Source: Escherichia coli (lineage in GTDB: Bacteria; Pseudomonadota; Gammaproteobacteria; Enterobacterales; Enterobacteriaceae). Taken from it: 64,000 nt of DNA. A program made the translations under genes and the position numbers. Below the pieces are notes generated by a model that was not told the origin of the DNA, searched no databases, and was given only the letters and a program-made list of their open reading frames with translations. Shown piece by piece: positions 6,046 through 25,290 of the stretch; position 1 is the first letter of the stretch, and the number at the start of each line of letters is the position of its first letter. The stretch lies in assembly GCF_030384885.1 (NCBI RefSeq), contig NZ_CP128613.1; one strand, 5' to 3'.

Positions 6046-7481
6046 TTTGCCTCCGATGCCAGTTCGTCAAAGACGTCTTTGCCGATGGAGCATTCCGGGC
6101 ACAGGAAGTTATCCGGGACTTCACTCCACGGCGTGCCTGGCGCAACGTCCTGCATTGGCTCGCCTTTTGCCGGATCGTAAATCCACTGGCAGACACTGCA
6201 CTGCATCCGCGGACCGAGATCAGCCGTCGTGGCGGCACAGGTTTCTTCTTTAACCACCGTATTCACCGTGCTTTGCGGCAGCGGCGAAAGCGCCCACTGA
6301 CGGGCAATTTCACGACCGTGTTCACGGCATAACTCCAGCGCGTCCTGGTCCGGTCGCCATTTGGCTTTCAGGCTAAGCGACATTTCGAAACCTGCATCCT
6401 GCAGGCGTGTGGAAAGACGATCCACCGCACCGCCGCTCCAGCCGTGAGAGCCGAAAGCACTGGCGCGTTTGTTACGGAAGCGTAATCCGGTCATCTCCTC
6501 CACCAGCCCGGCGATTTTCGGCATCATCACGTTATTCATCGTCGAAGTGCCAACCAGCACGCCTTTTGAGCGGAAGACATTGGTCAGGATTTCGTTTTTA
6601 TCGCTTCGGGCGACGTTGAAAATTTTCACCGCTACGCGCGGGTCGGTTTCCGCAATCCCCTGGGCGATAGCGTCAGCCATCATGCGGGTGTTATTCGACA
6701 TGGTGTCGTAGAAAATGGTGATTCTGTCTTCCTGATAATCCGCCGCCCATTTCAGGTACAGCTCGACAATTTGCGTCGGGTTATCGCGCCACACCACACC
6801 GTGAGAGGTGGCAATCATATCGACCGGCAAGTTAAAGCCCAGGATCTCGGTGATTTTCGGCGTTACCAGGCGGCTGAACGGTGTCAGGATATTGGCGTAG
6901 TAACGCTGGCACTGCTCGAAAAGCTCGGTCTGATCCACTTCATCGTTGAACAGATGCTCGTCGCAGTAGTGCTGACCGAAAGCATCGTTACTGAACAGCA
7001 CCGCGTCGCCCGTCAGGTAAGTCATCATGCTGTCCGGCCAGTGCAGCATTGGCGTTTCGACAAAAATGAGCTGTTTGCCGTTGCCGATATCCAGCGTGTC
7101 GCCGGTTTTCACCACGTTGAAATTCCACTCTGGATGATGGTGATGACCATTTATTGAGTCGATAGCGTTGGCAGTACAATAGATCGGCGTATCGGGAATT
7201 TGCGCCATCAGTTCGGTCAGCGCCCCGGCGTGGTCCTCTTCAGCATGGTTAATCACGATGTAATCGATATCCGCCAGATCGATTTCATTACGCAGGTTCT
7301 GCACAAATTCGCGGCTGAATTTATGGTCGACGGTGTCGATCAGCACGTTTTTTTCTTCGCGAATGAGGTAGCTGTTGTAGCTGCTGCCGCGCAGCGTTTT
7401 ATATTCTGTACCGTGAAAATCACGCACTTCCCAGTCACGTTGACCAACCCAATGAATGTTATTTTTCACCACAATAGACAT
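6042..7481 (-). CDS. norV: Anaerobic nitric oxide reductase flavorubredoxin
   Basis: Track ORF 479 aa; metallo-beta-lactamase-like and flavodoxin domains with C-terminal rubredoxin CxxC...CPxC. Confidence 0.9.
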
Positions 7482-20996: not shown

Positions 20997-21310
20997 TCTT
21001 TCCGCGTCTCATCTTTATCGGTGAGACGCACCCTCAAAATTCCTCCTTCACTCCATTGTTTTTTCGCTTTACTCCCGTTCATTCAACTTTAGTCTCCATT
21101 TTTTGCATTACTGCTATCTGTCAGACCTCCGTTTTTCTGTTGATAAAACACTCTTTTTGACGTTTTTACAGACTAATTGAGCGTGAAGTGTGCAAGCGAT
21201 AAAAGTGTGGGAAAAATTGTTTGACTTATAAGTCTCAGAAAGTAATATGTGCGCCACGCAGCGACGATGAGCGATAAACAAGTTCTTCGAAGCACTCGTA
21301 AGAGGCGTGT

Positions 21311-21403
21311 GGTGAGGTGGCCGAGAGGCTGAAGGCGCTCCCCTGCTAAGGGAGTATGCGGTCAAAAGCTGCATCCGGGGTTCGAATCCCCGCCTCACCG
21401 CCA
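21311..21403 (+). tRNA. serV: tRNA-Ser (anticodon GCU)
   Basis: ggtgaggtggccgagaggctgaaggcgctcccctgctaagggagt...ggttcgaatccccgcctcaccgcca: long variable arm, GCT anticodon, terminal CCA. Confidence 0.9.
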
Positions 21404-21406
21404 TTT

Positions 21407-21483
21407 GCATCCGTAGCTCAGCTGGATAGAGTACTCGGCTACGAACCGAGCGGTCGGAGGTTCGAATCCTCCCGGATGCACCA
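21407..21483 (+). tRNA. argV: tRNA-Arg (anticodon ACG), copy 1
   Basis: gcatccgtagctcagctggatagagtactcggctacgaaccgagcggtcggaggttcgaatcctcccggatgcacca, 77 nt, ACG anticodon. Confidence 0.9.
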
Positions 21484-21682
21484 TATTCTCCGAAATCTTC
21501 AGCGATGAAGGTGTCGAAGAGGTGGCGGTACTAACCGCAAGCACCAGGGAGGATAACGTTGCTTTAGCAACGGGCCGAAGGGCGAGCCGTAAGGCGAGTA
21601 ATCCTCCCGGATGCACCATCTCTTACTTGATACGGCTTTAGTAGCGGTATCAAAAAATCTGCAGTAAAGTAAGTTTCCCGAT

Positions 21683-21759
21683 GCATCCGTAGCTCAGCTG
21701 GATAGAGTACTCGGCTACGAACCGAGCGGTCGGAGGTTCGAATCCTCCCGGATGCACCA
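21683..21759 (+). tRNA. argY: tRNA-Arg (anticodon ACG), copy 2
   Basis: Identical 77-nt sequence to copy 1. Confidence 0.9.
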
Positions 21760-21956
21760 TATTCTACGAAATCTTCAGCGATGAAGGTGTCGAAGAGGTG
21801 GCGGTACTAACCGCAAGCACTAGGGAGGATAACGTTGCTTTAGCAACGGCCAGAAGGGCGAGCCGCAAGGCGAGTAATCCTCCCGGATGCACCATCTCTT
21901 ACTTGATATGGCTTTAGTAGCGATATCAATATCAGCAGTAAAATAAATTTCCCGAT

Positions 21957-22033
21957 GCATCCGTAGCTCAGCTGGATAGAGTACTCGGCTACGAACCGAG
22001 CGGTCGGAGGTTCGAATCCTCCCGGATGCACCA
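21957..22033 (+). tRNA. argZ: tRNA-Arg (anticodon ACG), copy 3
   Basis: Identical 77-nt sequence to copy 1. Confidence 0.9.
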
Positions 22034-22231
22034 TATTCTACGAAATCTTCAGCAATGAAGATATCGAAGAGGTAGCGGAATTAACCGCAAGCACCAGGAA
22101 GGATAACGTTGCTTTAGCAACGGCCCGAAGGGCGAGCCGCAAGGCGAGTAATCCTCCCGGATGCACCATCTCTTATTTGATATGGCTTTAGTAGCGGTAT
22201 CAATATCAGCAATAAAGTAAGTTCTCCCGAT

Positions 22232-22308
22232 GCATCCGTAGCTCAGCTGGATAGAGTACTCGGCTACGAACCGAGCGGTCGGAGGTTCGAATCCTCCCGG
22301 ATGCACCA
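22232..22308 (+). tRNA. argQ: tRNA-Arg (anticodon ACG), copy 4
   Basis: Identical 77-nt sequence to copy 1. Confidence 0.9.
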
Positions 22309-22588
22309 TATTCTCCGTAATCTTCAGCGATGATGGCATGGAAGAGGCGATGGTAATCACCGTCTGCTCCAGGGAGGATAACGTTGCGGCAGCAACGGCC
22401 CGAAGGGCGAACGCCAGTGAGTCATCCTCCCGGATGCACCATCTTCTCCAAAAAATCCCCTTCAAAAATATTTCATTTCTAAATAACTATTTTATCCATT
22501 TCCTGAATATTCTTCTCCTTCGCCATCAGCGACAAAATCAAGCAATTACGCTAAAGTAGCGTCATATTTTTCGACTTGCGAGAAGACC

Positions 22589-25216: not shown

Positions 25217-25290
25217 GAAAAAGGCCACTCGTGAGTGGCCAAAATTTCATCTCTGAATTCAGGGATGATGATAACAAATGCGCGTCTTTC
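25217..25290 (-). ncRNA. micA: MicA (SraD) small regulatory RNA
   Basis: Minus-strand reading gaaagacgcgcatttgttatcatcatccctgaattcagagatgaaattttggccactcacgagtggcctttttc matches the MicA sequence I recall, ending in a ggccactcacgagtggcc hairpin plus U-run; lies between gshA and luxS. Confidence 0.8.

Follow-up and report, generated by a model that had tools for sequence, protein, structure and literature searches.

Each of the four tandem tRNA-Arg(ACG) genes in the serV-argVYZQ operon of Escherichia coli 2013C-4282 is followed by an element of 133-135 nt whose 3' terminus repeats that of the tRNA. The operon lies in the stretch of DNA analyzed here (the window, 64,000 nt of contig NZ_CP128613.1), and its four spacer elements are tRNA-linked repeats (TLRs) of the rtT/RtT kind, an already known class. 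The feature is real, but the class was described decades ago and has named K-12 orthologues at the same locus. The joint explanation, to which a probability of about 0.6 is given, holds that each TLR arose from a duplicated tRNA-Arg gene, that it is excised from the transcript through its tRNA-like 3' end, and that the array formed by unequal crossing-over. The first-pass annotation of this DNA, made from the sequence alone, gave coordinates and a description that are accurate in every detail, and missed the catalogued class.

The arg spacer elements and their class

The gene order in the window is alaS-csrA-serV-argV/Y/Z/Q-yqaB-yqaA-gshA. The four tRNA-Arg(ACG) genes, called by both ARAGORN and Rfam, share 100% identity, as had been claimed. 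Their spacing of 276, 274 and 275 nt and the three spacers between them (199, 197 and 198 nt) agree with the unit of about 275 bp and spacer of about 200 bp proposed earlier. A repeat search recovers four 274-nt copies, and Tandem Repeats Finder reports a period of 274 with 3.8 copies and 92% matches over 21406-22444; its further row with period 135 is a reflection of a repeated 20-mer. Each element starts 1 nt past the tRNA-Arg CCA, on the + strand. The components of the array are listed below, where z compares the minimum free energy (MFE) fold with those of shuffled sequence.

21407-21483, + strand: tRNA-Arg(ACG) copy 1, argV position (ARAGORN, Rfam)
21484-21618, + strand: TLR 1, raV orthologue; Rfam RtT 26.7 bits over the full model length, z = -4.7; closing-helix 5' strand GCACCAGGGAGGAT at 21541-21554 (+ strand), hairpin C 21557-21572, hairpin D 21573-21583, hairpin E 21586-21595, pseudo-3' end 21600-21618
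21683-21759, + strand: tRNA-Arg(ACG) copy 2, argY position (ARAGORN, Rfam)
21760-21894, + strand: TLR 2, the copy absent from K-12/DH1; Rfam RtT 34.2 bits, z = -5.4; 5' strand 21817-21830, hairpin C 21833-21848, hairpin D 21849-21859, pseudo-3' end 21876-21894
21957-22033, + strand: tRNA-Arg(ACG) copy 3, argZ position (ARAGORN, Rfam)
22034-22168, + strand: TLR 3, raZ orthologue; Rfam RtT 27.7 bits, z = -5.9; 5' strand 22091-22104, hairpin C 22107-22122, hairpin D 22123-22133, pseudo-3' end 22150-22168
22232-22308, + strand: tRNA-Arg(ACG) copy 4, argQ position (ARAGORN, Rfam)
22309-22441, + strand: TLR 4, raQ orthologue, diverged terminal copy; Rfam RtT 28.3 bits, z = -1.8; 5' strand GCTCCAGGGAGGAT at 22366-22379, hairpin C 22382-22397, hairpin D 22398-22408, pseudo-3' end 22423-22441 (18/19)

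The exact copy of the last 19 nt of the tRNA, the conserved spacer hairpin and the diverged fourth spacer of the earlier description are all present. Exact copies of the tRNA-Arg 3'-terminal 19-mer AATCCTCCCGGATGCACCA mark the four tRNA ends and recur at 21600-21618, 21876-21894 and 22150-22168, in each case 116 nt past the tRNA (about 115 nt had been stated), and a copy with one mismatch (CATCC...) lies at 22423-22441; these 8 matches compare with 0.00 expected from shuffles. The identity extends to 20 nt, because the T after the CCA is common to tRNA and element. Hairpin C is located in all four units, as cgttgctttagcaacg in the first three and in the altered form cgttgcggcagcaacg in the fourth. 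TLRs 1-3 are 92.6-96.3% identical to one another and 79-82% identical to TLR 4. Downstream of the element, the remainder of each spacer is the leader of the next tRNA; leaders share 88-91% identity among units 1-3, and whole-length spacers 1-3 share 88-96%. The 5' part of TLR 1 is a variable region that contains hairpins.

TLRs were first seen in 1978 (Egan & Landy) and were catalogued by Rudd in 1999, with 22 copies at ten K-12 loci; their hallmark is a 3' terminus of 18-19 bp that repeats the one of the preceding tRNA or 5S gene (PMC8144298). The arg elements lie directly 3' of a tRNA, with which they share strand and operon, and their terminal identity is 19/19 in three cases and 18/19 in the fourth. 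Their core is shared with the tyrT, Lys and Pro elements, in a comparison limited to these three kinds. The K-12 elements raQ, raZ and raV are listed with argY/Z/Q at the arg locus in a strain table (PMC8144298), from which the names used here are taken, and the correspondence rests on synteny and near-identity with the K-12-like strain DH1. As in the window, the raV/raZ/raQ elements occupy the serV-argVYZQ locus directly after tRNA-Arg(ACG) and carry the same 19-nt tail. DH1 has elements after its first, third and fourth tRNA-Arg genes, whereas the second is followed by a 62-nt spacer in which CCA-T runs directly into the leader. With three elements in DH1 and four here, the window strain therefore possesses the three known arg TLRs and one more, located after the second tRNA-Arg.

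The Rfam RtT model (RF00391) matches each of the four elements over its entire length, at 26.7-34.2 bits, below the gathering cut-off of 45 bits. Due to these scores the arg TLRs go unannotated: at the gathering threshold no RtT match is found in the arg spacers, and the RefSeq/PGAP annotation marks no feature there. In E. coli records RtT is annotated at tyrT-tyrV several times after each tRNA-Tyr gene. The tyrT repeats, which end in the tRNA-Tyr 3' end, share with the arg spacers the arrangement AACGTTGC-loop-GCAACGGCCCGAAGGGYGA...GAGTAATCC. Since the proK TLR (96.4 bits) and the lys-operon TLRs (55-61 bits) both pass the cut-off, Rfam RtT is in effect the TLR family, to which the arg copies belong as a divergent short form. 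Both forms lie directly 3' of a tRNA and display hairpins C, D and E, the GAGTAATCC junction, a cognate tRNA tail, a closing helix that uses this tail and the possibility of tandem repetition. By contrast with the RtT model, whose architecture is an outer helix with five hairpins, the arg form retains the outer helix and the three 3' hairpins, lacks the two 5' hairpins (one T-arm-like, the other CGAGCG..CGAG), and has its 5' strand relocated so that it abuts hairpin C; its lower score and a tail from tRNA-Arg rather than tRNA-Tyr are further differences. ARAGORN and the Rfam tRNA model detect no + strand tRNA in the spacers.

The TLR class also includes RrA, RrB and RrF, located after 5S rRNA in rrnA, rrnB and rrnD, which share with the arg elements an 18-bp 3' repeat of the upstream gene. 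They are transcribed with their operons and processed, with a 3' end just past the repeat (PMC8144298). Unlike the arg elements, they sit between two terminators and are expressed by read-through. They bind Hfq and CsrA in vitro, whereas TLRs of tRNA operons are predicted not to bind CsrA. Papers that name argV/Y/Z/Q contain no mention of the spacers. More distant parallels are mascRNA at the 3' end of MALAT1 and the tRNA punctuation of mitochondrial transcripts, in which tRNA-like structures define the ends of RNAs that are not tRNAs. As in the mode proposed below for TLRs, a tRNA-like helix recruits end processing; these signals, unlike the arg elements, are full cloverleaf mimics with demonstrated cleavage by RNase P/Z, whereas the arg elements offer a predicted acceptor/T-stem-like helix and ACCA.

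Cognate tails and RNA structure

The hairpin core was sought in one genome per species from about 100,000 species, with a search pattern that fixed hairpins C and D, and each match was paired with the nearest upstream tRNA. Among the matches listed, the core occurs behind Arg(ACG), Arg(CCG), Lys(UUU), Tyr(GUA), Pro(CGG) and Pro(UGG) genes in Enterobacterales and in a Marinobacterium. In at least 64 elements from about 30 genera the tail, which starts 42-49 nt after the core start, matches the 3' end of a tRNA at 16-19 of 19 positions, and this is always the upstream tRNA's own 3' end. The tail also follows the tRNA variants of individual lineages: CCT in Pseudescherichia and Serratia, AATCTTCCTGGGTGC in Hafnia and Yersinia, and the tRNA-Tyr variant ...CCCCCGCC... 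in Enterobacter BIGb0383. Two forms can be distinguished. The long form has two extra 5' hairpins and usually lies behind a Rho-independent terminator (proK, the last lys gene, the arg locus of Yersinia), while in the short form the 5' strand abuts hairpin C and the element lies inside polycistronic spacers (arg and lys of E. coli and relatives).

Several loci met in the scan depart from the common arrangement. At the proK locus of Escherichia albertii (L025, 6267-6530), the tRNA-Pro gene is followed by a terminator, a full TLR (96.4 bits), the same terminator again and a second TLR, which is truncated by a REP-like element (naRNA4 match, 6529-6610); the order with two terminators is like that described for rrnB T1-rrB-T2. 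Outside the Enterobacterales, a metagenome-assembled genome of the Nevskiales (L085, 10010-10350) contains two tandem TLR-like units after tRNA-Arg(ACG), with a covaried hairpin C (CGTCGCC-GCA-GGCGACG) and a partly diverged tail (13/19). In the first spacer of a Klebsiella-like arg locus (150 nt; L011 and L012, 3683-3832) a decayed TLR is found, in which hairpin C has covaried to CGCTG/CAGCG and is followed by GCCCGCAGTGCGAGG, with no tRNA-like tail left.

MFE folds of the elements are more stable than those of shuffled sequence, with z between -4.7 and -5.9 in units 1-3 and z = -1.8 in unit 4. In the predicted fold GCACCAGGGAGGAU pairs with AUCCUCCCGGAUGC, the tail without its ACCA, and encloses three hairpins: CGUUGC-NNNA-GCAACG, GCCC-GNA-GGGC and one that is variable. 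Tail and upstream strand would form a helix of 13-14 bp resembling the acceptor and T stems, leaving the ACCA free. Because 10 of the 12 positions of the 5' strand are identical to the acceptor 5' strand fused to the T-stem 5' strand of the tRNA, the modeled closing helix is regarded as a mimic of the coaxial acceptor/T-stem “minihelix.” RNAalifold recovered the closing helix and hairpins C, D and E independently from 15 Arg TLRs of about a dozen genera, together with a small hairpin 5' of the closing helix in which the sequence varies and the pairing is kept. The junction nucleotides are strongly conserved. Each TLR in the window opens with UAUUCUCC (21484-21491 and equivalents), which resembles the AAUCCUCC of the tail and is able to pair with the GGGAGGAU strand, a hint at alternative conformations.

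Pairing was counted in 51 sequences covering six tRNA types, the 5' strand of long forms having been spliced beside the core in silico. Eighty-three percent of the cells are paired, compared with 30-43% when the partners are slid by 1-3 columns; both sides have changed in 16 of 29 pairs, and none of 500 shuffles reaches any of the observed pairing measures. Hairpin E provides an example, with pair 51-61 occurring as GC in 22 sequences, CG in 15, AU in 3 and UA in 2. In the Arg type, the 5' strand has changed in step with the tail in Pseudescherichia, Serratia and Hafnia. These compensatory changes support the closing helix and the hairpins. The Pro-type closing helix has only 6-7 bp. A comparison of duplex energies between tails and their own or foreign upstream regions, in which the own region was best for Arg, Lys and Tyr and not for Pro, was abandoned because GC-rich tails win on composition; an anchored helix count and the column-wise pair counts took its place.

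Origin and turnover of the elements

Evidence on the origin of TLRs comes from elements in which more of a tRNA is preserved. Ahead of the core, the Lys TLR of Xenorhabdus can be aligned with tRNA-Lys positions 2-57 (46/55 identical, z 19.8), and the Arg TLRs of two Yersinia species with tRNA-Arg positions 22-58 (z 7.8-9.5). In both genera the order is tRNA copy, core and tail, so that a module of about 70 nt lies in the T loop. The element of Xenorhabdus mauleonii (L094), in the 171 nt that follow tRNA-Lys, is a near-full tRNA-Lys copy with its anticodon loop included and the ~70-nt core in the T loop. Because these elements are copies of the neighboring tRNA interrupted in the T loop by the core, the sequences indicate that the tail is the 3' end of a duplicated tRNA gene and not an attR site.

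By this route each arg TLR would derive from a duplicated tRNA-Arg gene of which two remnants may still be recognized. The first would be the last 19 nt, comprising the end of the T loop, the 3' strands of the T stem and acceptor stem, the discriminator base and CCA; the second would be the upstream strand of 12-14 nt that resembles the fused acceptor and T-stem 5' strands. Between these two putatively tRNA-derived strands would lie the three small conserved hairpins. The rest of the tRNA copy has eroded in the E. coli elements, whose interior is not significantly similar to the tRNA-Arg body (z 0.25-1.1). That the unit represents an old duplication of leader plus tRNA is likewise unsupported in E. 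coli, given these interior values and a z of about 1 for the TLR 5' region against the leader.

The core itself may be an independent module. In Alloalcanivorax xenomutans (L058, 5930-6130) three 76-nt tandem repeats contain hairpins C, D and E (CGTCGC-TTTA-GCGACG, GCCC-GGA-GGGT and GACCGCC...GGCGGTC). They have no tRNA nearby, no tRNA-like tail and no Rfam family match, and are followed by a terminator-like hairpin.

Arg spacers were compared across ten loci retrieved through an identical CsrA protein. They measure 59-64 nt when no element is present, 193-199 nt with one element and 228 nt with two in tandem; wherever the TLR is absent, the leader alone makes up the whole spacer. In these loci and in DH1 the junctions between presence and absence always fall at the 20-nt repeat. 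TLRs are thus gained, lost and multiplied exactly at this direct repeat, and natural strains have between 0 and 4 copies at the arg locus. Units 1-3 are alike, the terminal element has diverged and counts vary, which is the pattern expected if the array grew by unequal crossing-over between units. Of the earlier proposal that a unit bearing an attachment-site scar had been amplified in tandem, the amplification agrees with the identical tRNAs and the 88-96% identity of the spacers, and the integrase scar is not supported.

Proposed processing, rival readings and significance

The proposed processing concerns the transcript of the whole operon, whose further features are the following.

21221-21248, + strand: sigma-70-like promoter TTGACT-16-TAATAT, 5' of serV, at a distance that fits the reported leader
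21311-21403, + strand: tRNA-Ser(GCU), serV (ARAGORN, Rfam)
21619-21682, + strand: 64-nt leader of tRNA-Arg copy 2 (spacer comparison)
21895-21956, + strand: 62-nt leader of tRNA-Arg copy 3 (spacer comparison)
22169-22231, + strand: 63-nt leader of tRNA-Arg copy 4 (spacer comparison)
22548-22572, + strand: terminator-like hairpin and T run between TLR 4 and yqaB (consensus match only)

The serV leader has been reported as 52-56 nt (PMC7049720), and the promoter-like site at 21221-21248 is likely the operon promoter. The hairpin at 22548-22572 is probably a candidate for the operon end. The three leaders of 62-64 nt contain a conserved small hairpin, GATAYGG...(C)GRTATC, which is kept with a different loop in Salmonella- and Citrobacter-like loci and may help to direct processing of the genuine tRNAs. 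Other signals across the array were discarded. Minus-strand ORFs, the minus-strand tRNA-Arg(TCG) calls of ARAGORN (21703-21774 and 21977-22048) and the sub-threshold Rfam 'Plastid-ycf2' matches on the minus strand of every tRNA are mirror artefacts, the last two of the + strand tRNA genes. A 39-codon GTG-start ORF on the + strand (21522-21641 in TLR 1, 21798-21917 in TLR 2) is probably spurious, since its start is lost in TLR 3 (GTA) and the region evolves by compensatory RNA changes; it is reminiscent of a small ORF once tied to the tyrT repeats. The adjacency of csrA was treated as coincidence, because TLRs occur at ten K-12 loci and those of tRNA operons are predicted not to bind CsrA. MicA sRNA (25219-25290, - strand; Rfam RF00078, 83.9 bits) lies just downstream of gshA, a known gene in its expected place.

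The TLRs would be co-transcribed within the serV-argVYZQ precursor, in which tRNA and element both end in a helix and ACCA followed by U(A/C)UYCU. Because the 3' end of the TLR resembles that of the tRNA and has the same U-rich trailer, RNase E is proposed to cut just after the TLR CCA, where 3' exonucleases would stop. RNase E is reported to cleave tRNA precursors normally 1-3 nt past the CCA (PMC2190699), and the 3' end of RrB, 3 nt past its repeat, is attributed by the authors to RNase E (PMC8144298). Cleavage there would set the TLR free as a stable, discrete RNA of about 135 nt, its 3' end protected like that of the tRNA. A 79-nt form would be possible if RNase P also cut 5' of G21541, and the next leader and tRNA would be processed as usual. 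Release of rtT RNA from the tyrT transcript has been described (PMC4986893; also a PGAP note), and a processing role has been proposed for the related 5S-linked repeat RrB (PMC8144298). In a study of the lysT operon, RNase P separates the tRNAs, RNase E is able to cut long spacers and exonucleases trim long trailers; the spacers after lys tRNA genes measure 133-150 nt, and the study leaves the repeats unmentioned. Two E. coli lys spacers hold short-form TLRs. In line with the proposal for RrB, the first-pass suggestion that the pseudo-3' end acts as a processing signal is plausible and is the favored reading for the arg copies.

Several observations weigh against this reading of processed and structurally maintained elements. 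The closing helix contains two conserved mismatches, part of its covariation could be inherited from the stems of the tRNA itself rather than selected in the element, and the invariance of hairpins C and D is uninformative because the search pattern fixed them. In the Klebsiella-like copy the MFE fold favors another partner, the 5' UAUUCUCC. Long forms behind Rho-independent terminators (proK, the last lys gene, Yersinia arg) would be transcribed by read-through only. TLRs are missing altogether from one E. coli-like locus with three tRNA-Arg genes, another lacks the terminal TLR, and the terminal copies of Salmonella-like loci are decayed, with CCA and hairpins gone. In addition, a strain without all 22 TLRs has been constructed (PMC8144298). 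Any TLR role is non-essential, as this strain and the natural strains lacking some or all arg copies demonstrate.

These same facts lend themselves to the rather unlikely alternative that TLRs are neutral or selfish by-products of recombination, remnants of duplicated tRNA genes with no selected role as RNA or DNA. Presence and absence are precise at the repeat, the number of copies differs among E. coli and from genus to genus, terminal copies decay, all 22 can be removed, and the elements have “no known function” (PMC8144298). Against neutrality, the core is near-invariant from E. coli to Hafnia, Edwardsiella and Marinobacterium, whereas the flanking spacer is unalignable; hairpin E and the small upstream hairpin change in sequence and keep their pairing; and the Pro tail stays at 16-19/19 although it is mostly unpaired and a single tRNA gene is nearby. 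It also seems unlikely, to a slightly greater degree, that the core, which as 76-nt repeats in Alloalcanivorax stands without a tRNA tail, is or once was an autonomous mobile or recombination-propagated module that targets T loops and has repeatedly entered duplicated Arg, Lys, Tyr and Pro tRNAs, the resulting minihelix RNA being selected and processed.

An action of the released RNA in trans, as an sRNA, a protein sponge or a decoy for RNase P, CCA-adding enzyme, RNase T or RNase PH, is improbable. A stable minihelix with free ACCA is predicted and the junction nucleotides are strongly conserved, and the 5S-linked TLRs RrA/B/F are reported to bind Hfq and CsrA in vitro (PMC8144298). In the same study, however, 19 tRNA-operon TLRs score below 0.01 in a predictor of CsrA binders, and the stringent-response phenotype of rtT is noted as retracted (PMC8144298); the RNA has no known target or partner, and cells can do without the elements.

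The suggestion of the first-pass annotation that the pseudo-3' ends are integration scars has very little left in its favor, whether it is framed as attR-like integrase scars at a tRNA-Arg later amplified with the unit, or as TLRs being miniature integrative elements moved in trans. Integrases that target the T loop duplicate the tRNA 3' end, from the T loop onward, as a direct repeat, and the ends of K-12 prophages carry partial tRNA copies (attR). The direct repeat downstream of an intact gene and the presence or absence exactly at this repeat fit such an event, but the repeat is shared with TLRs and does not discriminate. The attR repeats of prophages and islands bracket kilobases of DNA and an integrase, whereas the arg repeats bracket just 116 nt of conserved, structured sequence that recurs at many tRNAs, with no integrase, island or prophage remnant and with csrA and yqaB flanking the array. 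No genuine relative of the spacers was found among 50,697 phage records, chromosomal integrative elements not having been searched separately. Plasmid matches were mislabeled chromosome pieces only, with no relatives on mobilizable plasmids. One core occurs behind at least six tRNA species, each time with its cognate tail, which a single integrase specificity cannot give; moreover, the 5' strand pairs and covaries with the tail, and in some copies a tRNA pseudogene holds the core in its T loop.

Recognition of the arg spacers as TLRs avoids a false integration-scar reading, and it identifies copies that both the Rfam cut-off and PGAP annotation miss. The 20-nt repeats make the tRNA-Arg copy number and the spacer content unstable, which is relevant to strain comparison and operon engineering. 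TLRs are part of operons that rank among the most heavily transcribed in enteric bacteria; they have been known since 1978 with no assigned function, the single phenotype ever reported having been retracted. The cognate-tail rule, the covarying helix with its free CCA, the short and long forms, the T-loop pseudogene relatives and the strains with 0-4 copies provide handles for testing what they do.

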